Shown here piece by piece: positions 1-10,829 of a stretch of DNA of 64,000 nt; the stretch's first letter is position 1, and every line of letters starts with the position of its first letter. The position numbers and the translations under genes were made by a program. The DNA is from Spirochaetia bacterium. GTDB lineage: Bacteria > Spirochaetota > Spirochaetia > UBA9216. The notes beneath the pieces are model-generated. The model saw nothing but the letters and a program-made list of their open reading frames with translations. It was not told the DNA's origin and made no database searches. The stretch spans positions 3,168,001 through 3,232,000 of the forward strand of contig OY776510.1 in NCBI GenBank assembly GCA_963675665.1. The letters are read 5' to 3'.

Positions 1-1291
1 GACCGAGGTAAACAAGCGGAGCTCCCGGCGCTGCAGGATGAGGGCTCCGTGAAGGTTCGGTTATATTCCCTTTCTTTATAACCGGAGCGGCTTCGGCTGC
101 AATTTCAGAGGAAATTTCAGAGGAAATTTCCTCAAGAGTCTGCTTGCGGAAGATGCTGTCTTTTGCAGGAGAAGAAGGAAATGCTGCAGATGTAACTGCA
201 GCTGCAGGTCTGCCGATATCGAGGCTTTTTTGTTTTTCAGAATAAAACTGTTTACCGGTCAGGGGCGCGGAAACCCGGAATGAATTACGTTTGCCGAGAT
301 ATGAGCCCAAAGTATCGGTAACAATATGATGAATTTCCGGCAGATTTCTGAATTTTACTTCTCGTTTGGCCGGATGAATATTAAAATCGACGTGTTCAGG
401 AGGAATATCAATAAATAAGAAACAGACAGGATGACACCCCCCGGGAAGGAATGATGAATAGGCATAATCAACAGCCTGTACAAGGGCAAAATCGCTGATT
501 CTGCGGTTATTTATAAATATCTGAATATACTTTCTGTCTTTCCGGTAGAGAGAAGGAGTGCCTGCAGCTGCAGTTATTGAGATTCCGTCAGTTTCAGCAG
601 AGAAAGTATCAATAAAATTCTGATGAAACAGTCCTGCGAAGGCTGAGACTATCCTGGTTTTAAGATCTGAGGCCGGCAAAAAAAGTTTAAGCTTGTCTTC
701 GGCGAAGTATCTGAACCCTGTTTCAAGCTGTGGAAGAGCTTTCTCTATAAAAGTTGACCTGCAAAGTGCGGATTCGGCAGAAGGACTTTTTAGAAAATTT
801 CTGCGGCCCGGCATGGAATAAAAAAGGTCACGAGCGCTTATCAGAGTTCCTTGTGGGCCCCGAAAGGGAGAAAGATCGCGCAGTTTACCGTCCTGTATTT
901 CCAGTTTAAAGGCTGAGCCGTCGTCTGAGACAGAACTGGTTATGCTGAGTCTCGAACAAGCTGCAATACTTGAAAGAGCTTCACCCCTGAAGCCCAGGCT
1001 TTTGGTACTGTAAATATCTTCAAAATCAGTAATTTTACTTGTGGCATGAGGAAGAAAACATTTTTGAAGATTCTCCTCATCCATTCCGCTGCCGTTGTCG
1101 ACTACACGGATTTCTTCAATACCTCCGCCGTGGATATACAGATTAATCTCGCTCGAACCGGCGTCGATTGAATTATCAAGAAGTTCCCGGACAACCGCCT
1201 GTGGACGATCAATAACTTCTCCGGCGGCTATTCTTCTTGCAACGGAGTCCCGGAGAATATTAATTCTCCGGGAATTATAAATGTCTGTCAT
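1..1291 (-). CDS. mutL: DNA mismatch repair protein MutL (3' part runs off the window)
   Basis: Absent from the ORF track because it has no stop in the window. Manual translation from ATG at 1291: MTDIYNSRRINILRDSVARRIAAGEVIDRPQAVVRELLDNSIDAG...DNGSGM...HATSKI...LGFRGEALSSI, the GHKL ATPase motifs of MutL. Confidence 0.97.
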   Translation of the reverse strand, partial: MTDIYNSRRINILRDSVARRIAAGEVIDRPQAVVRELLDNSIDAGSSEINLYIHGGGIEEIRVVDNGSGMDEENLQKCFLPHATSKITDFEDIYSTKSLGFRGEALSSIAACSRLSITSSVSDDGSAFKLEIQDGKLRDLSPFRGPQGTLISARDLFYSMPGRRNFLKSPSAESALCRSTFIEKALPQLETGFRYFAEDKLKLFLPASDLKTRIVSAFAGLFHQNFIDTFSAETDGISITAAAGTPSLYRKDRKYIQIFINNRRISDFALVQAVDYAYSSFLPGGCHPVCFLFIDIPPEHVDFNIHPAKREVKFRNLPEIHHIVTDTLGSYLGKRNSFRVSAPLTGKQFYSEKQKSLDIGRPAAAVTSAAFPSSPAKDSIFRKQTLEEISSEISSEIAAEAAPVIKKGNITEPSRSPHPAAPGAPLVYLG

Positions 1292-1298
1292 ATCTGAA

Positions 1299-2705
1299 CT
1301 AAAAATGGATTCTCATGTCAATCGACATGGCAAAATACGGGTTGTCAAGAACATGGGTAATTTCATCCATTGCAAGAGCACCCGTTTCCTCATCACGCGG
1401 AAGCGCGGTTGTGAACATAAGCGCTATATCGAGAGAAGGATCGAAAGGATACACTATCTCGCCGCTGATAAGGGTGTCAGGGTTCAGGAATGTGAAAGCT
1501 TCTGTCTTGTTAACTGCATTCTTTATGGAGCTGACAAGTCTTGATCTGGTGTACGACACAGAACCGTAAATTCCGGCAACCGGTATTATATCCGGCATCA
1601 GGGCTGCAGAAAGGGTGAAATAATCGTTTTCCGAAAAATCTATTGTTCCGGAAGAACTCAGTTCCCACGGCCACAGATAACCTCCTGTAAGGGTTACCGC
1701 GTCGAAAATGTTCATTGCAAGTTCACCGTATACGCCCATCGTGATGTCCTGATATGCGGAGCCTGTCGGATCTGCTTCAAGATCCTCTATGTAGCCCGTC
1801 AGGGCATCATACTGAAGTGTTTTATTTAAAAGATAATTGTTACCGTAGAATGCAGGTGTAAATATACCCTTGCTGAGACGATATTCAAGCCTGTAGTCAA
1901 GAGAGAACAGGTTGCCGAAAATACCGGCTGATACGCCGTAATTATTAAGAGACGCAAGAAAGTCTCCGGCTGAGGGGTTGTAAAAGGTTTCGGTGTACCA
2001 TGTTGAATCTTTATAAACGGTAAGCCCGGCAAAATCCGTGAAAATAGTCATATTCAGCAGGCTTATCGGCAGGCCCAAATCGAAGGCTGCGTTCAGTATC
2101 AGCGGATCGAAAAGTTTGGGTGAATCTTCAATTTCGGAATCGGGATTAATATCGGTAATTCCTGAAAGCGCTATCTGCATTGGAAAGCTGCTGCCGAACG
2201 GAATAAAAGCAAGTCTTCCGCCGAAAATGGTCGGATCGGCTGCATTGTCGAGAACCGCTTCAAAACCGAAATTCTCAAGGAATAGCCCTGTGTTGATACC
2301 GACTTTACGGACTGCAGGAAATTCAAAGTTGTTACTGAAATTGCGCATAAGAATTCCATGACCTATAGTCATGTTGTTGAGATTGCCGAATTTCAGATAG
2401 AAATCGTCGCCGTTATCGCCCCACTGGATGTATTCAATTTTGAGAAACAGATCATTAAATATGTCAAATGCAATATCCTGGGCCGTGTCCTGATCGGTTC
2501 CGAAGGACCATTCGTTATTTTCAGCGGGTTTGTACCAGCTGGACGGTTCAAAAAGATTGTCCTGGTAAATTACCGGAAGATAAAGGCTGGCCTTGAGTTT
2601 GCCTATTTCAAATTCCGGCTTGACAACAGCCTTTGCATATGTGGTCCCGTCGATAATTATTGAACCTACCTCAAAACCGAAAATGTCGCCCAGTCCGGAA
2701 AGCAT
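1299..2705 (-). CDS. Putative outer-membrane beta-barrel domain; probably the C-terminal part of the FecR-domain gene at 2666..3721 (joined product about 807 aa)
   Basis: No signal peptide of its own. The frame stays open upstream to 2915 and encodes a continuation of the acidic linker (ASDGTADAAAADDTETD...). Amphipathic beta-strand pattern, C-terminal Phe (MRIHF), paralogous to 3736..5169. Confidence 0.7.
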   Translation of the reverse strand: MLSGLGDIFGFEVGSIIIDGTTYAKAVVKPEFEIGKLKASLYLPVIYQDNLFEPSSWYKPAENNEWSFGTDQDTAQDIAFDIFNDLFLKIEYIQWGDNGDDFYLKFGNLNNMTIGHGILMRNFSNNFEFPAVRKVGINTGLFLENFGFEAVLDNAADPTIFGGRLAFIPFGSSFPMQIALSGITDINPDSEIEDSPKLFDPLILNAAFDLGLPISLLNMTIFTDFAGLTVYKDSTWYTETFYNPSAGDFLASLNNYGVSAGIFGNLFSLDYRLEYRLSKGIFTPAFYGNNYLLNKTLQYDALTGYIEDLEADPTGSAYQDITMGVYGELAMNIFDAVTLTGGYLWPWELSSSGTIDFSENDYFTLSAALMPDIIPVAGIYGSVSYTRSRLVSSIKNAVNKTEAFTFLNPDTLISGEIVYPFDPSLDIALMFTTALPRDEETGALAMDEITHVLDNPYFAMSIDMRIHF

Positions 2706-3721
2706 ATTTTCGAGAGGTCCGGATTTGGAATCTTTTTCTTCAGCATCTGCATCAGTATCGGCAGCTGCCGACGCGTCCGGAATTTTGCCTGCTGTAATTG
2801 CAGAAGCGGCAGAGCCGGTCCTGGACGCCCTGGGCGGGGATTTGGGTTTGTCTGTTTCCGTATCATCAGCGGCAGCAGCGTCGGCTGTTCCGTCTGAAGC
2901 TTTGTATCTGCAGTTTCATCATCAGCAGTACCATCGTCGGTCGCTTCATCATCAGCCGTATCGTCAGTAGTCTCTTCTACGGCCTCATCGTCACCGGTAT
3001 CTCCATCGTCTGAACCGTCATCAGCAGTTTCGTCCGTTCCGGTATCAAGCGCGGAAGAGGTATGCCCGGGAACCTGCCCCGGGTCGGTTCCGTTAAAGTC
3101 CATACCGCTGAAAATGGATGCCAGGCTTTGTGCGGATGCAGCCGTTGCAGCGAACGTATCGGCAAATACATCTGCAATCTGGCCCGAAATAACACTGATA
3201 GTGTCGCCGCTTAAAAGGCTTGAAAAAGCAACTTCGCCGTCGCGGACAGCGAGTACGCCGATAGAGTCTATGACAAAATCTGTGCCGCGGACTCCGCATA
3301 CGGCGGACTGGGTAATAATTGAATAATTTTCATATCCAAGTCCGGCCCGGGCCGCAATTACTCTGAGTTTCCCGTTGAAAAGAGAAAAATCATTGGATTC
3401 ATCGGCTGTGGTCTGAAATGCTTCAATCTGAAAGACTGAATTTTCTGAAATCTTTAGTATGGATCCGTTGGGATCAAGCTGGATTTCTGCCGAAGTATTG
3501 TAGGTTTTGATTGTGCTGCCCGGAAAAAGTTCCATGCCTATAAACACTTCGCCTATGTAATCTCCGGTGCTGTCGAAAACTTCAAGTTCGAAATCATCAT
3601 CATAATATACAAGAAATGCCGTCGGGTTTGAACTTTGCTGGGCCGTAACAGGTACGGTAAATAAAATAAGGGCGGTGAGAACAAGTCCGAAAGCTGTTAA
3701 AAATTTTGTTTTACTCTTCAT
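2666..3721 (-). CDS. FecR-domain protein N-terminal part with acidic D/E/T linker; frameshifted near 2903
   Basis: Signal peptide, FecR-like motifs (GSTIKT...AEIQLDPNGSILKISENS; TQSAVCGVRGTDF), then a D/E/T-rich linker whose composition changes abruptly after ...ETADTK. Confidence 0.8.
   Translation of the reverse strand: MKSKTKFLTAFGLVLTALILFTVPVTAQQSSNPTAFLVYYDDDFELEVFDSTGDYIGEVFIGMELFPGSTIKTYNTSAEIQLDPNGSILKISENSVFQIEAFQTTADESNDFSLFNGKLRVIAARAGLGYENYSIITQSAVCGVRGTDFVIDSIGVLAVRDGEVAFSSLLSGDTISVISGQIADVFADTFAATAASAQSLASIFSGMDFNGTDPGQVPGHTSSALDTGTDETADDGSDDGDTGDDEAVEETTDDTADDEATDDGTADDETADTKLQTEQPTLLPLMIRKQTNPNPRPGRPGPALPLLQLQQAKFRTRRQLPILMQMLKKKIPNPDLSKICFPDWATFSVLR
2906..3035 (-). repeat. 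Low-complexity acidic linker repeats (TADDE/TDDG-like units)
   Basis: Translation TDETADDGSDDGDTGDDEAVEETTDDTADDEATDDGTADDETAD; GAT/GAC-rich DNA. Confidence 0.7.
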
Positions 3722-3735
3722 ATTCTATCTCCTGC

Positions 3736-5169
3736 CTAAAAAAAGTTAATAGAGCAGCTGAGGGATGAGCTTACGTCAAAATCATCCCAGGTGACTCCGA
3801 TATTGCCGTCTTCAATGTAAATCATGTCGTAAGATAAAGTGATAACGGCGGCACCGGCATTATAGTTAATAGCCAGGTTGGCCATGCTGTTTTCAGCCAA
3901 CAACAGATCAACCGGCTCGTTGATAAATCGCTTGTCATAAGACGCAGAGAAAGAGAAAGAAGGGATTAATCCGTCGTTAACAGCAAACATTGCATACAGA
4001 TGCGGGTATTCGAGAAAGTTGTGTCCTTCGGTGCTGCCTGAAGGCGGGGCTGAAAAAGGTCCGTCAACGGTGGCTGTAAAAACCAAAAGATCATCAAGAA
4101 TGGAAATACCCGTGCTTGCAAGCCAGGATATGCTGCTTTCAATATAAGGCGGATCATTTGCGTCGTAGGTATCGTTATAGATATCGTATTTAACTCCGCG
4201 GTAAAGATCATACATGTTGTCAAAATAGGCTGGTATGAAGTTATCGCCGAGAAATCTCAGCTGAAAGATGTATGGAATAATATTAAACAATCGTCCGCCG
4301 AACCCTGTCATGCCGCCTTTATTTGATCCCTGAAATGCAAGATCGCCGAAAAGCGCTAAAGTTGCAAGGTCCATGTTCAGTATCGGCAGAATGAGGTCGG
4401 AGCCCCAGACAAGAACAGGGGTAGCCGGATCTCCGTTGTTTATTGCCGTTTCATAGAAATCGGCCCGGTAGTCCGGATCAATATCGGCTGCTGCAGTGAT
4501 TCCCCACTCAAGTTCCTTGATAATCGGAACCCCGCTCCATAGAAGCGGCCTGGAATATAATCTGGCTCCGAAAACGTCGAAATGCGCCAGGTTTCCGGCA
4601 AAAGTTTCGATGCCCAGGTATGGGAAATTGAAAAGCTGGCCGTCCAGATCAAAATTCAGGCCGACAATTTTTTCATCGGGTTGAAATAAAGTATTCGAAT
4701 ACTGGCTTACAATAAAGCCGGTGCCTATTAATGCATTATCAATCTGTCCAACCTTTGCATACAGGGTATCACCTTTATTTCCCCAACGCATATATGTGAT
4801 TTTGGGCAGATATAGCTCAAGGAAGTTTGCGAAGGACCATCCTTCGGCCGGGACCCAGTCCTCTTCACGTATATCAAAACCGCTGCCGTCCGAAACAAAC
4901 CGGTAATGAAGAACAAGATCAAGACCTATGCCGAATTTGCCGATTGCAAGATCGGGTTTAAGGGCAAGAGTCTGAAAAGTTTCAGGATCTCCGCCTTCTT
5001 CTATCGGGTCGAAGGTTTCGACACCGAGCAGCAGTCCGAGTCCAAAATCAGTATTCATGCCTGATTCGGGTTCGGATTCAGTCCCGGTATTGTCCTGTGC
5101 GGTAACGGAAAAGTTCAGAACAAACATGCCGAGAAATATTAATAGAAACAATATTCTGTTTGGTCTCAT
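3736..5169 (-). CDS. Putative outer-membrane beta-barrel protein, paralogue of 1299..2705
   Basis: Signal peptide, C-terminal aromatic (CSINFF). Shares a block with 1299..2705: KITYMRWGNKGDTLYAKVGQIDNALIGTGFIVSQYSN vs KIEYIQWGDNGDDFYLKFGNLNNMTIGHGILMRNFSN. SD AAGGAG upstream. Confidence 0.75.
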   Translation of the reverse strand: MRPNRILFLLIFLGMFVLNFSVTAQDNTGTESEPESGMNTDFGLGLLLGVETFDPIEEGGDPETFQTLALKPDLAIGKFGIGLDLVLHYRFVSDGSGFDIREEDWVPAEGWSFANFLELYLPKITYMRWGNKGDTLYAKVGQIDNALIGTGFIVSQYSNTLFQPDEKIVGLNFDLDGQLFNFPYLGIETFAGNLAHFDVFGARLYSRPLLWSGVPIIKELEWGITAAADIDPDYRADFYETAINNGDPATPVLVWGSDLILPILNMDLATLALFGDLAFQGSNKGGMTGFGGRLFNIIPYIFQLRFLGDNFIPAYFDNMYDLYRGVKYDIYNDTYDANDPPYIESSISWLASTGISILDDLLVFTATVDGPFSAPPSGSTEGHNFLEYPHLYAMFAVNDGLIPSFSFSASYDKRFINEPVDLLLAENSMANLAINYNAGAAVITLSYDMIYIEDGNIGVTWDDFDVSSSLSCSINFF

Positions 5170-5227: not shown

Positions 5228-8200
5228 CTAATAAATGATACTGCCGGTTAGCCCTAAACTCAAGCCGTACAGCAGGGTTTTATTTTCTGAAACGTTATTA
5301 TATTCAACTCCGAAAAGGCCGAATGCGGACAGCGTAAATATCCGGGGCAGCACAAGAGATGTTGTATGTCTGAATTCGGTACTTATCGAGGCTTCAACAT
5401 CGACAGACAGTTTTTCCTCATGAATAATAAGCTGGAAATTTTCCTCTTCTGAATCAAACAGGGGGAGATTAAACGGTGTTGCCGGGTGTTCAGTTCTTAC
5501 ATATATAAGATCTGTTTTAAATTCGGACTGCAGGTCTTCATATCCGACGGGCAGAAAAAATGAACTGTCTACTGATAAAATCTGTTCTTCGTGTCCGAAA
5601 AAAGAGCAGCCCGTGCTGAAAATGTATTTCTGTAGTATTGATTCGGAAAAGGGGTCGGCCAAAGCGGCTTCAACTGACCAGTTGAATTCATCAGAGAAGT
5701 AAAAGTCGAAAAACGAATAGACACCGGCTGCTCCGAAAAGGTTAAGGGCAGCAGACCGCCATACAAGATCAAAATCAAGACTGTCTTCGAGATCGTCGTA
5801 ATCCTTTAGTGAATTTCTTTCCAGCCCGGTACTTACCGAAAACGGTACAAGCAGATCAATAAGCCGGCTGCTGTAGTTTCTGGAAAATTCCGCGCGGATT
5901 GAGTTGTTCAGCTTGGCCTGGTCAATTTCGGCGGCAGTGCAGTCGTCGAAAACTGTTTCGGGAAGTGCGGGATCAAACAACTCACAACCTGGAATTGATG
6001 TATAAAGATAGTCCCGGCGGGAAAGCAGGTAGAACATATCGGATATATCATCCGTAAACCCGGAACTTTCCGTTGTGTGGGTAAAATCAGCTGAACGGGA
6101 AAATTCAAGCCGGGCTGAAATTGTTCCGCCTGAGGTTGATATTGATACGGGAAAGCCTGCGCTGATTTCCGCAGAATCGGTTTTTGTATTCTCGTCGTTG
6201 ATATCCGAATTTGTTTTTATTCCAAATTCAAATCCGACGGGAATTGTAAGTATTGCCGGTGAAAGTTGTATTTCTATTTTACGCTGTTCAAGCTGAAACG
6301 GGGTGAAATTAACAGCAAGGGCCGTGGCATCTGCCCATCCACTGAAATAATTGTTCCAGTCGAAAGACGAGGTGCTGTCTGAGAGCAGCATTTTATAACC
6401 GGCATCAAGGCTGAACAGGGTAGTCGACATGGTAATGTCTGAAGACCATTTGCGAAGCAGGTTTCCTTCATTATCTGCGGTTGAAAATTCTGCCGGAGTT
6501 CCGGAGAATACACCGGCATTCAGCCTGAGACTTCCGGTCTTTGAAAAGTCCCCTCCGGATGCCGACTCTGTTCTGAATGAATCGCAGAGATGCAGATAAC
6601 TGCCGACTACCGGGATATCGATTGTGTGCCCGGCGGCAAGCAGGTTAACGCCGCCGGCGTCTTTCAGGTTGCAGTCTGCTGATACTGAAGTCCCCAATAT
6701 CTCACTGCTGATTTTTGAATAGAGATTTACAACTCCGGTGTTATAATCAGCAGATGCAGACAGCGCGGCAGGACCTATAATTTCCAGATTGCCGGCAGTG
6801 AGCAGCGGCCCGGATGAACTGATTTCGATATCTCCGCCGACGCCGGCGGTAGTATGCAAAACGGGATCTGACAGCGAGACTTCATCCAGATAGAGGACCC
6901 CGCCGGAGGCATTCTCGGTTCCCGTTTCAATAAACGAAAGATCTCCCGAATCCGAGTCAAAGGTCAATTCAGCCTGTGTATTCTCAACATTATTAACAAG
7001 AACTGTTCCCGTCCCGCCGTCAGCGCCCGGTAAAAGCTCAATTTTGTTCCAGGCGGTACCGGAACCAAGCGGTATTTTCGACTTGATTCCCGAACCTTCC
7101 GAATCAACCATATTGAAAATAAGAAGAGGGGGGGCTGCTCCGGATGGTGTAAGTTCGGGACAATAGGCATGGAAAGTCACTTTGCCGTATTCCGTCGGCG
7201 GTACCGGGTAAATAACTGTGCGGATTTTCCAGTCGTCAGTCCATTCGATTCGCAGGACTTTGTTTGACTCACCCGCTGAAAGCGTATCGGCCGTAAGCGC
7301 CGCCGAGGGTGTTTCGGCGGCAGGAATCAGAGCTTCGCTTATCTCGGAAAAATCCGGTTTTACTGCGATATCAGGATCAGCATACATTACAGATCCTTCA
7401 AATGTGAAATCATCAAACATAATGCGGCCGGATGTTTCGCCGGTTCCGTTGTTTACAGCGGTTATACGAATAAACCCGGCATTTCCAAGGCGGCTGCGCG
7501 CCGCATCGCTTAAGTATAGCCTTACGGTTTTCCATCCTGTACCGGGTTTTACAAAATCTGCGGAGGAAGAAAAAAGAACCGACGCATCTGTTTTTTCGGA
7601 ATCAAGAAAACCGTTGCCGTTAAAATCTTCACTGTCCTCAATCCCGTTACTTTTTTCAAGATTATCACCGCCGATAAGTGTTCCCGATTCGGAATTCGGA
7701 TCGTTGAATATATATCCTGAAGAATAAGCGGATGTTTCAGCATCCAGGTTTCCGTCGTCGTCAAGATCTTCCGAAAGAGAGCCTGTTTCGATATAAAGAG
7801 TGATATTGCTTAAATCAGAGTCGGTTTTGCAGTCGAACGACAGCGCCCTGCTGGCGCTGAGGTCGGGGTTCTCTGAACCGTAGGCAAGAGGAATCTGTAC
7901 GCCGGCCCAACTGTTGCTTTCGGGGAGGATGTAATCCATAGCAAGGATTTCTCCGGAACGACTGTCTGTAACGGCAGAAGCAGTATAAGGGCCTGCCTTG
8001 AGCTGCCCGGAGGCTGACGAATCGGATGGCGAAAAGATCATTGATTCATCAATCTCGGCAGTATAATCCTGAAGATAATAGGAGCCGAAACTGGTCGGGA
8101 CACGATAATCCTTGTAAAGAAGAAGCCCTCTATCCTCCGGGGCAAGGCCGATATTTTCCGAAGCGGAAGCAGGGAAAACGGTATTTCTGTTAAGAGGAAC

Positions 8201-9841
8201 GCTGTACCCGTCAGCCGACATGCTTAAAAGCAGCAGGCGTCCCGCCGAGTTTTGAGACAGAAGTTTTACCCCTCCGGAAATACCGGCATTCAATTGGTAT
8301 GCATCTGTCTGATTTTCATCGGAATTCGAAAAACTCAAACCTGCAGTTATACCGCCGTATCCGCTTGTTTCTTCCCCCGGAAGCGCATACGAATCCGAGA
8401 TGTTCCAGCGTACTCCGCCGTTAAGATATGCCGAAAGATGATCGGTAATTATGAAGCTGTTGGATGATGCAAAAAGAATATCGCCGCCCGTACTGCCGGA
8501 AGATTTTTTACGGTAGTAAATTTCAATCCGGTCTTCGGAGCCGGGCCGGGTATCAAAGGTAATAACACCGTTCGATTCAGTCCATGCAGAGGTCTCAATT
8601 TCGTTTATGTATATTCTAACGGTGCCGTCGACAGGATCGTCGATCGAATATGACGAGCTTTCTTCGCGTATTACAAAAAGAAGTTTACGGTCGTCATAGC
8701 TGCCGTAAACCGAAGAATCGAGGATGATAATTCCTTTATCCGGAATTATGTCGGATGCGAGTTCAATTCGTGAGGCTGATGAGGAGGCAGCATCCGTGAT
8801 ATAAACCTTTGTTCTCCAGTATTCATCCGGAAGAACGGTGCCGAGGTTATAAGCTGCTGAATTCTCAAAAGGAGACAATATCCCCGGTTCATAAAGCATC
8901 AGCATAGTGCCCTTGACTGAATTAATAATCCAACCGGGGTCAATTCCGCTCCAGTCCGGATCCTCCGCCAGAACAAGTAGTGCCCCGGGAGATTTTTCTT
9001 CCAGAACCAGACTCCCTGTAGACGGAGACCATGAATATTCCTGATCTGACAGCAGTGAATAATATCGGCCTTCATGAAGAAATGCCTGAGTGCCGTCGGA
9101 CCCTGACTCGATATAAAAAACAGAAGCGGAAGGGCTTCCGGGAACTTCAAAATAGCGGCCTTTTACATAGTCGGATAATTCCATTTCGATTTCCGTTACC
9201 GAATCGGAACCGATATAAACCTGGCGCTGCTCTTCTTCAGGGTCAAAACGGAATAGCAGTTCGTGTTCGGAGAACGGACTGCATAAAACTGAATGAATTC
9301 CGAATGAGGAAGGGCCTCCGCCCGGAACATGGAAATAATCATTCATTGGGACATCTTCAGACATGTTTATTCCCATATTGCCGACGGAAACGGACTGGAC
9401 GATTTCTCCCTCCTGTCCAATATATCCTAATCTGAAAGTCGAATCATCAAATTCATCGCTGAAAGCCGCTTCAAAAAGGTAGCGGTTTAAAATCAGAACT
9501 GAAGCTGTAAAATCAGGTGACTGGGAAAAAGCAAAACCGGAAGAAATACCGGGGTAGGTAAGCGCCGGATTAAACCCGGTATCAGACGTCCAGCCCGTGC
9601 CGAAAGATGCAGAAGTTTCAATTTTCCAGCTTCCTGTGAAAAACATCTGTACATCTTCGCTGTCCTGTCGGGCTTCGAGAAAAGCGGAAGGGCTTTCCTC
9701 TTCCGGCAGGAGCGGTTCATCCGCGGAAAATGCCTGTTTCGGGAATAGAATAAAAATAATTAAAAACAACAGTGAAATATATTTGAAAGCATATTCGGTT
9801 GTCCGCAACATTAACGCAAAGTATATCCTGTTTTTATTCAT
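5228..9841 (-). CDS. Large exported protein, SprA/Sov (T9SS translocon)-like
   Basis: 1537 aa with a signal-peptide-like N-terminus. Motifs FRLGYIGQEGEIVQSVSVGN, SSFGIHS, SDYVKGRYF, WAGVQIPL, LYIETGSLSED and DSEDFNGNGFLD recall SprA. Beta-rich C-terminal third ending in Tyr. Confidence 0.6.
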   Translation of the reverse strand: MNKNRIYFALMLRTTEYAFKYISLLFLIIFILFPKQAFSADEPLLPEEESPSAFLEARQDSEDVQMFFTGSWKIETSASFGTGWTSDTGFNPALTYPGISSGFAFSQSPDFTASVLILNRYLFEAAFSDEFDDSTFRLGYIGQEGEIVQSVSVGNMGINMSEDVPMNDYFHVPGGGPSSFGIHSVLCSPFSEHELLFRFDPEEEQRQVYIGSDSVTEIEMELSDYVKGRYFEVPGSPSASVFYIESGSDGTQAFLHEGRYYSLLSDQEYSWSPSTGSLVLEEKSPGALLVLAEDPDWSGIDPGWIINSVKGTMLMLYEPGILSPFENSAAYNLGTVLPDEYWRTKVYITDAASSSASRIELASDIIPDKGIIILDSSVYGSYDDRKLLFVIREESSSYSIDDPVDGTVRIYINEIETSAWTESNGVITFDTRPGSEDRIEIYYRKKSSGSTGGDILFASSNSFIITDHLSAYLNGGVRWNISDSYALPGEETSGYGGITAGLSFSNSDENQTDAYQLNAGISGGVKLLSQNSAGRLLLLSMSADGYSVPLNRNTVFPASASENIGLAPEDRGLLLYKDYRVPTSFGSYYLQDYTAEIDESMIFSPSDSSASGQLKAGPYTASAVTDSRSGEILAMDYILPESNSWAGVQIPLAYGSENPDLSASRALSFDCKTDSDLSNITLYIETGSLSEDLDDDGNLDAETSAYSSGYIFNDPNSESGTLIGGDNLEKSNGIEDSEDFNGNGFLDSEKTDASVLFSSSADFVKPGTGWKTVRLYLSDAARSRLGNAGFIRITAVNNGTGETSGRIMFDDFTFEGSVMYADPDIAVKPDFSEISEALIPAAETPSAALTADTLSAGESNKVLRIEWTDDWKIRTVIYPVPPTEYGKVTFHAYCPELTPSGAAPPLLIFNMVDSEGSGIKSKIPLGSGTAWNKIELLPGADGGTGTVLVNNVENTQAELTFDSDSGDLSFIETGTENASGGVLYLDEVSLSDPVLHTTAGVGGDIEISSSGPLLTAGNLEIIGPAALSASADYNTGVVNLYSKISSEILGTSVSADCNLKDAGGVNLLAAGHTIDIPVVGSYLHLCDSFRTESASGGDFSKTGSLRLNAGVFSGTPAEFSTADNEGNLLRKWSSDITMSTTLFSLDAGYKMLLSDSTSSFDWNNYFSGWADATALAVNFTPFQLEQRKIEIQLSPAILTIPVGFEFGIKTNSDINDENTKTDSAEISAGFPVSISTSGGTISARLEFSRSADFTHTTESSGFTDDISDMFYLLSRRDYLYTSIPGCELFDPALPETVFDDCTAAEIDQAKLNNSIRAEFSRNYSSRLIDLLVPFSVSTGLERNSLKDYDDLEDSLDFDLVWRSAALNLFGAAGVYSFFDFYFSDEFNWSVEAALADPFSESILQKYIFSTGCSFFGHEEQILSVDSSFFLPVGYEDLQSEFKTDLIYVRTEHPATPFNLPLFDSEEENFQLIIHEEKLSVDVEASISTEFRHTTSLVLPRIFTLSAFGLFGVEYNNVSENKTLLYGLSLGLTGSIIY

Positions 9842-9893: not shown

Positions 9894-10829
9894 ATGGATA
9901 TTAATGAAACAGACAAATTGAAGGCGGCTGCGTTTATACAGAGATTGATGGCTAATCCTGCCCTTAAAAGTTTTTCACCGCTGCAGCGGGAAGAACAGAT
10001 ACTTCAGTTTCTTACCGTAAATGCATCACAACTTTATCCCACCCTGTCATCCGGCTCTTTTTTTGCAGGCAAAAACTGGGAATCGATATGCAGAATACTG
10101 TTCAATGTTCTTTATGAAACAATAAACAAGGAAGTAGTTCCCGAGGCAGGATTACTGATCAACAGGCTTGATTTTACTTTCTTTACTTTTCTCAGGCAGG
10201 CTAATATCGATGAAGGCAGCGCCAAGCAGACTGTAATAAGCCTGATTGAAAAGATGTTGGCCAATGAACAGGCAAGAAGAATTCTGGCCGGATCTCTGGC
10301 TGCAATCACCAACAATATTGTAAAAAAATATATTGCTGAAATTTATCAACGGCGCAAATACGTTCATTTTGAAATTATGAAAGTAGAACGTCTTAAGATT
10401 GGAGAGAAAGAAGCGGAAAATATGATTTCGCTGGTTATGCTTCTTAAACCGCTTGTTTATCTGTTTGCTCCGCAGGGGCAGTCTGTAAAAAATACCGCTA
10501 ACGGACAGCTTTTTCCTGTTCATTTTACGGCAAATATTGCGCAGAACCTTGCACAGAAAACACCGGCTATTCCGGAAAAAGTTTTTTTAAGCGCCATGAA
10601 TTCCAATTCGTCATTTGCCGACTACAATAAACTTGAAGCAACAGCAAGGATGGGGAATGTTCTTGTTTCAATGTGCCGGAATTACAAACCTGAAGCAAAG
10701 AAAGACCGGGGCGCAGATACTGCGATAAAAAGCTGGATAAATGTTGCCAGAAAGAATTACAAATTTTATGGATATGATATAAAAATGCTGGATGAACTTT
10801 ATAATATAGCTGCAGATAACGGATGGTAG
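9894..10829 (+). CDS. Hypothetical alpha-helical cytoplasmic protein (311 aa)
   Basis: Long ORF heading a tight three-gene cluster; no recognisable domain. Confidence 0.8.
   Translation: MDINETDKLKAAAFIQRLMANPALKSFSPLQREEQILQFLTVNASQLYPTLSSGSFFAGKNWESICRILFNVLYETINKEVVPEAGLLINRLDFTFFTFLRQANIDEGSAKQTVISLIEKMLANEQARRILAGSLAAITNNIVKKYIAEIYQRRKYVHFEIMKVERLKIGEKEAENMISLVMLLKPLVYLFAPQGQSVKNTANGQLFPVHFTANIAQNLAQKTPAIPEKVFLSAMNSNSSFADYNKLEATARMGNVLVSMCRNYKPEAKKDRGADTAIKSWINVARKNYKFYGYDIKMLDELYNIAADNGW

Follow-up and report, generated by a model that had tools for sequence, protein, structure and literature searches.

Type IX secretion is placed in Bacteroidota or in the FCB group in the excerpts of four papers drawn on here (PMC4793230, PMC10994853, PMC7463736, PMC12398890). 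According to the part of PMC10994853 consulted, the translocon SprA is one closed 36-strand barrel, capped on the outside and with a lateral opening. The C-terminal domain (CTD) of a substrate brought across by Sec goes into this barrel at the periplasmic side and binds PorV loops, which extend inside by way of the lateral opening. It then leaves with PorV; energy from GldLM pulls PorV away, and transport in Bacteroidota needs this motor (PMC10994853). In the literature searched, no paper describing SprA or a type IX secretion system (T9SS) in spirochaetes was found; the nearest was a Brachyspira preprint, whose consulted part describes one 14-strand barrel with the UniProt label PorV/PorQ (10.1101/2025.01.03.631275), and the rest concerned Bacteroidota symbionts or generic adhesins. 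We analysed 64,000 nucleotides of a spirochaete genome (Spirochaetia bacterium, GCA_963675665.1, contig OY776510.1, positions 3,168,001 to 3,232,000; this whole stretch is called the window), which carries on its minus strand, at 5228..9841, a gene for an SprA-like giant outer-membrane protein of 1537 residues (P0001, called the giant).

The giant resembles SprA/Sov of F. johnsoniae (6H3I, 6H3J, 8GL6 and 8GL8) in being a single-chain giant beta-barrel with a Sec signal, in its collinear blocks and profile homology over the first two thirds, and in a fold match that runs from SprA residue 173 to 2401. Type-A CTD tails and PorV-like barrels also tend to be present in genomes that have the giant. 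Unlike SprA, which measured 2221-2741 residues in 29 open reading frames (ORFs), the giant has about 64% of the length, with the shortening spread along the chain; it fails both curated models, TIGR04189 and SprA_N, its C-terminal third is unrecognisable by sequence, and GldKLMN were not found. SprA is described with its 36 strands, cap, lateral opening and the partners Plug, PPI, SprE and Skp, and the giant is known from sequence and from models of its halves. Because of its length, an identity of about 16% and the failure of both curated models, we regard the giant as a homologue that is a compact member of the SprA/Sov superfamily in a distinct subfamily, outside the SprA equivalog. We put at roughly 0.6 the probability that it serves as translocon in a minimal T9SS-like pathway that has no motor.

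Sequence and fold of the giant

The ORF of the giant, translated from the minus strand of the window, runs from an ATG for 1537 residues uninterrupted by stops. A sequence-only reading of the window had listed seven blocks in an exported protein of this length without giving the strand, and all seven were found in the order listed: FRLGYIGQEGEIVQSVSVGN (residues 136-155), SSFGIHSVL (178-186), GSDSVTEIEMELSDYVKGRYF (211-231), DGTVRIYIN (405-413) with GVITF (425-429), WAGVQIPL (645-652), LYIETGSLSEDLDDDG (682-697) and DSEDFNGNGFLD (736-747). The N-terminal region (residues 1-39; 9725..9841, minus strand) reads directly as a Sec signal in translation, with the hydrophobic core ISLLFLIIFILF followed by AFS|ADEP. 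The true start is probably M11 (position 9811), because a 99%-identical database copy has 1527 residues and almost all sequences of the family alignment keep this methionine.

Curated models recognised the giant poorly. TIGR04189 (SprA) matched residues 117-231 at E 0.0028 with 14.9 bits against a curated cut-off of 200 bits, which leaves the giant outside the equivalog; Bacteroidota controls scored 824-2902 bits. It was the only secretion-related family to match the giant, the giant was its only place of match in the genome, and 13 of 21 members of the giant family gave weak matches to it (best E 3e-5). Pfam SprA_N (PF14349) matched neither the giant nor the 21 aligned members at E<=1, and none of 28 family representatives, drawn from the best 150 of 2491 database representatives, at E<=0.1. 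An ESM Atlas cluster near a stored homologue of the giant carries PF14349 on 12% of its members, which we treat as a lead only. HMMER searches of PDB sequences with the giant, the full-length family profile and the N-terminal profile returned no SprA chain at E<=10.

Profile-profile alignment gave a different outcome from these searches. Bacteroidota genomes were gathered by a published 16S probe and their SprA loci taken by TIGR04189, which exceeded its cut-off in 4 of 5 genomes and then in 34 of 41. The 31 loci used yielded 30 ORFs of more than 2200 residues (one locus was without a long ORF), and after one wrong-strand ORF was dropped 29 were aligned. Local hhalign comparison of the 21-member family alignment (A1) with these 29 SprA sequences gave a probability of 99.2% and E 2e-19 over 941 columns, at an identity of about 16%, and spanned residues 52-1009 of P0001 (A1 columns 48-1055) and positions 212-1561 of the SprA profile. 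Global alignment gave 99.9% and E 4.2e-30, and a reversed SprA alignment, used as control, gave 0.1% and E 0.4. The SprA motifs that the sequence-only reading had listed as collinear were borne out, since each of the seven blocks paired with an SprA counterpart in the profile-profile alignment; examples are FRLGYIGQEGEIVQSVSVGN with LKLDYTPTEDDILQKIEIGN, WAGVQIPL with WAGIMRPL, and LYIETGSLSEDL with LVLNLGNISEDI.

The region of sequence-level homology (residues 52-1009; 6815..9688, minus strand) holds the seven blocks, N-terminal barrel strands and inserted soluble beta domains. One of these is a jelly-roll, CBM-like beta-sandwich at residues ~825-1000 (approximately 6842..7369, minus strand), which was located by profile and fold and ends in the conserved ...GGVLYLDEVSL. 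Its profile match to CBM11 is weak (E 0.16), and VIA-align superposed it on CBM11 and calreticulin-type jelly rolls with Z ~12 and a root mean square deviation (rmsd) of ~3 A over ~150 residues. Pfam gave only a weak DUF2460 match at residues 393-441, which recurs weakly in relatives and is taken as a small beta-sandwich resemblance.

We folded residues 41-1240 (model 1) and 338-1537 (model 2) with AlphaFold from the family alignment and free of templates; the mean predicted local distance difference test score (pLDDT) was 79.0 and 82.6, respectively. The solved SprA structures postdate those on which the AlphaFold2 ptm weights were trained. Foldseek against the PDB placed SprA at ranks 1-4 for both half-models. 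For model 1 these were 8gl6_A (6e-37), 8gl8_A (7e-37), 6h3i_A (2e-32) and 6h3j_A (8e-27), with a query template-modelling (TM) score of 0.58, and the next match was at 1e-10 with TM 0.10. For model 2 the four SprA entries lay between 6e-26 and 1e-20 with query TM ~0.31, and the next match was at 2e-7.

VIA-align placed 931-996 of the 1200 residues of model 1 on SprA 173..1892 (rmsd 6-8 A) and 830-920 residues of model 2 (116..1200) on SprA 746/753..2401, with an rmsd of ~17 A as expected for a half barrel, so that the fold match is collinear across both models. The Z scores for SprA (12-14.5) are not above those of ordinary 22-strand barrels, and aligned length alone separates the two, ordinary barrels aligning over ~320 residues. 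DSSP counted 33 strands of at least 11 residues over the models, some of which may fall in the soluble domains, and 24 of at least that length within residues 978-1535 of model 2. The C-terminal third (residues 1010-1537; 5231..6814, minus strand) is, in the model, a run of long beta strands that matches SprA by fold only; it had been described as beta-rich and ending in Tyr, and the chain does end in ...TGSIIY.

Sequence profiles and fold together make it very probable that the giant is a homologue of SprA, in line with the earlier proposal of a shortened, divergent one. Significant similarity to SprA, the absence of which the sequence-only reading had named as fatal to its proposal, was found both by profile (HHalign E 2e-19) and by structure (Foldseek 6e-37 and 6e-26). 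On this reading, it is a single chain exported by Sec that probably forms a very large beta-barrel in the outer membrane and carries beta-sandwich insertions.

Candidate cargo and carrier in the genome and the phylum

We searched the whole genome, a single contig of 5.15 Mb that is 96.4% complete and has 5997 ORFs, for further parts of a T9SS. A candidate cargo was found outside the window, in an ORF of 5117 residues on the plus strand (G000:C1:1206420-1221773, L085) that is almost without Pfam domains. Its tail matches the TIGR04183 type-A CTD with 27 bits against a cut-off of 23, and only 3 residues separate the domain from the stop codon. Of the 5997 ORFs, a spirochaete CTD profile matched just this one (E 9e-25), the only CTD in the genome, and phmmer with the last 110 residues of the cargo found no second C-terminal copy in the genome. 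The PorU model matched with its CTD-like end alone (positions ~950-1094), and this search is uninformative because the Bacteroidota control genome was missed as well, with no match at E<=1e-8.

A PorV-like barrel of 409 residues, likewise outside the window and on the plus strand (G000:C1:4073708-4074937, L036:1387-2616), was matched weakly by the PorV model and clearly by a profile of spirochaete PorV-like ORFs, which it alone among the 5997 ORFs matched (E 6e-24). It is flanked by unrelated genes, which code for a SpoIIE/HAMP sensor, a TPR protein and DnaE. We predicted the complex of this barrel (alignment of 6) with the CTD of the same genome (alignment of 16), with three controls. The predicted complex scored 0.83 and the best control 0.00, at least 87% of contacts were common to the runs, and the pLDDT of the partner was at least 88; the mark used for this score was reached by 116 of 157 solved complexes and by 2 of 215 mismatched pairs. 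Because 8GL6 has been solved, the prediction is to be read as a likeness to SprA-PorV-CTD and not as proof of binding.

The giant itself is widespread. A word-indexed search returned 24 relatives, most of them of 1500-1640 residues, and those with names came from spirochaete metagenome bins and were annotated 'hypothetical'. Among 1.84 billion representatives of clusters at 50% identity in public data, a profile (A4) of the first 900 residues of 27 diverse copies matched 2491 at E<=1e-3, of which 1108 reached E<=1e-30; the best 150 of the 2491 were all family members, of 755-2207 residues. Profiling across Spirochaetota, which the sequence-only reading had put forward as a check, found the giant by profile in 194 of 401 sampled genomes and 108 of 153 genera (77 of 401 genomes with a single-protein query). 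Its occurrence, as found with this profile, differs among families: 32/50 genomes in f2, 10/11 in f23, 1/38 in f25, 0/75 in f20 and 0/8 in f5, a family of small genomes. Intact frames of 1100-2200 residues occur across the phylum, with 20-50% identity within the family and conserved columns, and all nine genomes of genus g2 carry a natural short form of ~1138 residues in which the N- and C-terminal parts are kept; a copy of this form lies at L032:1185-4601 on the minus strand.

Some side observations concern the family and its models. In Treponema-like genomes (L032:1185-5785) the giant gene directly follows dinB (DNA polymerase IV) with a 4-nucleotide overlap, and DinB::giant fusions of ~1700-2100 residues are called among database proteins (P0067, P0124, P0024 and P0025 among them); these fusions are probably gene-calling artefacts. 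TIGR04189 also gave a weak, sub-cut-off match at E<=1 in the Thermus thermophilus control genome, which may be chance or another distant SprA-like barrel.

Type-A CTDs and the giant tend to co-occur across the phylum. TIGR04183 scored above its cut-off in 113 of 401 genomes and 77 of 153 genera, and in none of 14 control genomes; 20 of 20 matches checked (the best from each of 20 genomes) ended 0-10 residues before the stop, with the usual ...GVYF...K..hhK ending. By scripted cross-tabulation, CTDs were present in 102 of 194 genomes with the giant and in 11 of 207 genomes without it. Within family f2 all 10 CTD-positive genomes were among the 32 of 50 with the giant, and among the first 30 families listed, a CTD occurred somewhere in 15 of 18 families with the giant versus 4 of 12 without.

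PorV-like barrels in the CTD-rich spirochaetes numbered 17-51 matches per genome, all of them below the cut-off (best 72-91 bits). At 6 of 6 places, chosen because the matches adjoined, a CTD ORF was followed on the same strand within 150 nucleotides by a PorV-like ORF with a signal peptide, and one of four such CTD-adjacent ORFs passed Pfam PorV. Cargo in these genomes carries fn3 repeats and a glucoamylase domain. The model of PorV (LptO; NF033710, PF19572) matches the spirochaete copies over most of the barrel; unlike PorV, they all fall short of the NCBIfam cut-off of 250 bits (highest score 91), and the CTD-rich spirochaetes have one barrel per cargo, directly downstream, in place of a single shared PorV. 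Flavobacteria pair type-B CTD cargo with PorP/SprF barrels, and the one-barrel-per-cargo layout of these spirochaetes resembles that arrangement. As a side observation, some lineages (L268-L273; G004, G020 and G058) carry at least 14 CTD-tailed genes per genome, each followed by its own PorV-like gene.

Neighbouring genes and rival explanations

A number of results weigh against a translocon role for the giant in a T9SS-like pathway. The first is the motor: GldM had no match in this genome at E<=1 and the best E for GldL was 0.09, at noise level, in searches that found the positive control, a Bacteroidota genome (G401), with 450 and 232 bits for GldM and GldL. The same two models found neither protein in four CTD-rich spirochaetes. 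Three further searches were run without a positive control: the best match for GldK had 51 bits against a cut-off of 350 and covered the generic sulfatase-modifying-factor part only, that for GldN was a frame of 46 residues at E 0.13, and that for the PorP/SprF-family barrel had 19.5 bits against 90.55. The earlier statement that no gldKLMN genes lie in the window therefore holds for the whole 5.15-Mb genome, and the genome search that the sequence-only reading had suggested yielded one PorV-like barrel and one CTD tail but no GldL or GldM.

The candidate parts also depart from their namesakes. The last ~90 residues of the cargo are classed by Pfam as FlgD_ig (39.7 bits) and not as Por_Secre_tail. 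The PorV-like ORF scored 21.7 bits with NF033710 (the NCBIfam PorV model, cut-off 250), and unlike PorV it falls in the Pfam class UPF0164, a FadL-like treponemal family, and has a C-terminal TPR extension. Cargo, giant and PorV-like genes lie at 1.2, 3.17 and 4.07 Mb, megabases apart, and there is a single cargo in this genome, where Bacteroidota have tens. No CTD or PorV-like gene lay beside the giant in any of 28 relatives' loci, within 4-7 kb on each side.

For the giant itself, the C-terminal third (residue 1000 onward) gave an hhalign probability of 0.6% against SprA, equal to that of the reversed control. The giant was modelled as overlapping halves only, so that barrel closure, strand number, cap and lateral opening lie beyond the view of the models; we infer a closed barrel with a cap and a lateral opening.

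Across the phylum, 92 of the 194 genomes with the giant are without a CTD above the cut-off, in genus g2 all 9 genomes carry the giant but only 1 of 9 a CTD, and 11 genomes have CTD tails with the giant undetected. The association is moreover confounded by relatedness: families f20 and f25 (113 genomes) are without almost all of both and account for much of the raw contrast, and related genomes are not independent.

Several of these results would suit a different job for the giant, in which a true SprA-superfamily barrel serves other export or uptake in spirochaetes, or an envelope role together with the barrel-like proteins encoded downstream, and CTD and PorV-like genes use another route or share only genome ancestry with it. 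We consider this the main rival, possible but less likely than a translocon for CTD cargo. It would account for the 92 genomes and the g2 pattern, for the missing GldL/GldM motor in this genome and in the four CTD-rich spirochaetes, and for the 28 of 28 giant loci without an adjoining cargo or PorV-like gene.

The genes downstream of the giant supply its other argument. Directly downstream, on the minus strand at 3736..5169, lies a gene for an exported, outer-membrane-barrel-like protein of 477 residues that ends in ...NFF and keeps its place beside the giant in some lineages; any tie between the two is uncertain. It adjoins the giant in 7 of 28 relatives' loci, where FecR and barrel form a single FecR::barrel gene of 685-790 residues, and the order giant, 477-residue barrel, FecR::barrel fusion is kept in these seven loci and in the window. 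Against a functional tie, the 477-residue barrel family occurs in 210 of 401 genomes in a pattern unlike that of the giant (f2 1/50 vs 32/50; f23 0/11 vs 10/11; f20 75/75 vs 0/75), and in many genomes the downstream gene pair is far from the giant. The barrel-like genes downstream, considered as partners of the pore, were rejected since they adjoin it in 7 of 28 loci only and their family does not track it. A separate job for the giant also sits poorly with the roughly tenfold greater frequency of CTDs in genomes with the giant (102/194 vs 11/207), seen also inside f2 (10/10), and with the translocation of CTD proteins as the only function known for the fold, as far as the consulted part of PMC10994853 goes.

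In the window the FecR-domain ORF (Pfam FecR; 2666..3721, minus strand) is followed by a 468-residue paralogue of the 477-residue protein (30% identity, E 1e-19; 1299..2705, minus strand), whose frame overlaps it. Because the barrel frame stays open upstream through an acidic linker, this copy carries a frameshift in the low-complexity linker, real or a sequencing error. The 477-residue family has a weak match to Leptospira ImpL63, under the NCBIfam name 'cytoplasmic membrane protein'; its signal peptide and C-terminal ...NFF or ...IHF look more like an outer-membrane barrel, and the FecR part resembles LipL45. On the other side of the giant, a divergent gene on the plus strand (9894..10829) encodes 311 residues with no Pfam or NCBIfam match, and by BLASTP of neighbours in relatives it keeps its position beside the giant in 6 of 28 loci (among them those of G230, G030, G380, G332 and G133).

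A second explanation treats the giant as a relic: either the gene came recently from Bacteroidota or allied groups, or it is a decaying copy that no longer has a function. The consulted parts of PMC4793230 and PMC10994853 otherwise place SprA in Bacteroidota and their FCB relatives, and no other canonical T9SS part is present here, both of which such an origin would explain. It is nevertheless very improbable. Frames of 1100-2200 residues are intact in 194 of 401 genomes, spread over 108 of 153 genera, and public data contain 2491 representatives of clusters at 50% identity. Members of the family have diverged deeply, to 20-50% identity, and keep conserved columns; local gene order is kept in several families, and identity to SprA is only ~16%.

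The weakest explanation, a spurious similarity made of generic Ca-binding DxDxDG loops and generic barrel strands, could appeal to the PDB searches with HMMER and to SprA_N, which both came back empty, and to VIA-align Z scores for SprA (14.2-14.5) no higher than those for FhuA-type barrels, but is already refuted by Foldseek with both models, with 26 orders of magnitude between SprA and the next match for model 1, by an aligned length of 931-996 residues where generic barrels reach ~320, and by the HHalign signal, which covers 941 columns, includes non-loop blocks and is gone on reversal.

A proposed motor-less pathway in spirochaetes

The sequence-only reading had proposed that the giant is possibly the translocon of an undescribed spirochaetal export system. 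The CTD and PorV-like ORFs elsewhere in the genome, the co-occurrence across the phylum and the predicted complex speak indirectly for this proposal, and the 28 loci without a cargo or PorV-like neighbour do not. With these results set against each other, we lean towards the giant being a protein translocon for CTD cargo. As part of the motor-less, minimal T9SS-like pathway that we favour, it would conduct CTD cargo, work with the PorV-like barrel and be energised without GldLM. This genome's set appears to be one pore (the giant), one PorV-like barrel and one cargo of 5117 residues.

In such a pathway, Sec-exported cargo with a type-A CTD would enter the barrel of the giant from the periplasm. 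The loops of the PorV-like FadL-family barrel, docked at the pore, would bind the CTD, and cargo and carrier would then exit together to the cell surface. Whether Spirochaetota in general run an outer-membrane-only, type-IX-like pathway of this kind, with a compact SprA pore, PorV-like carriers (often one per cargo gene), CTD cargo and no GldLM, is to our mind an even proposition.

If the pathway exists as proposed, the outer-membrane core of the T9SS would be older and far wider than the system of Bacteroidota and the FCB group, and it could run on another energy source or on none; the only surface protein that it would serve in this genome is the one of 5117 residues. An SprA relative in ~70% of sampled spirochaete genera, accompanied by CTD-tailed proteins and PorV-like barrels but by no motor, would extend the system to a major diderm phylum with host-associated treponemes among its members. 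A natural 'motor-less' version would let one ask what the motor is needed for, and the compact forms of 1537 and 1138 residues would be easier structural targets than the 2400-residue SprA. The pathway might also account for the way in which very large adhesins and glycoside hydrolases come to be displayed on free-living and gut spirochaetes.

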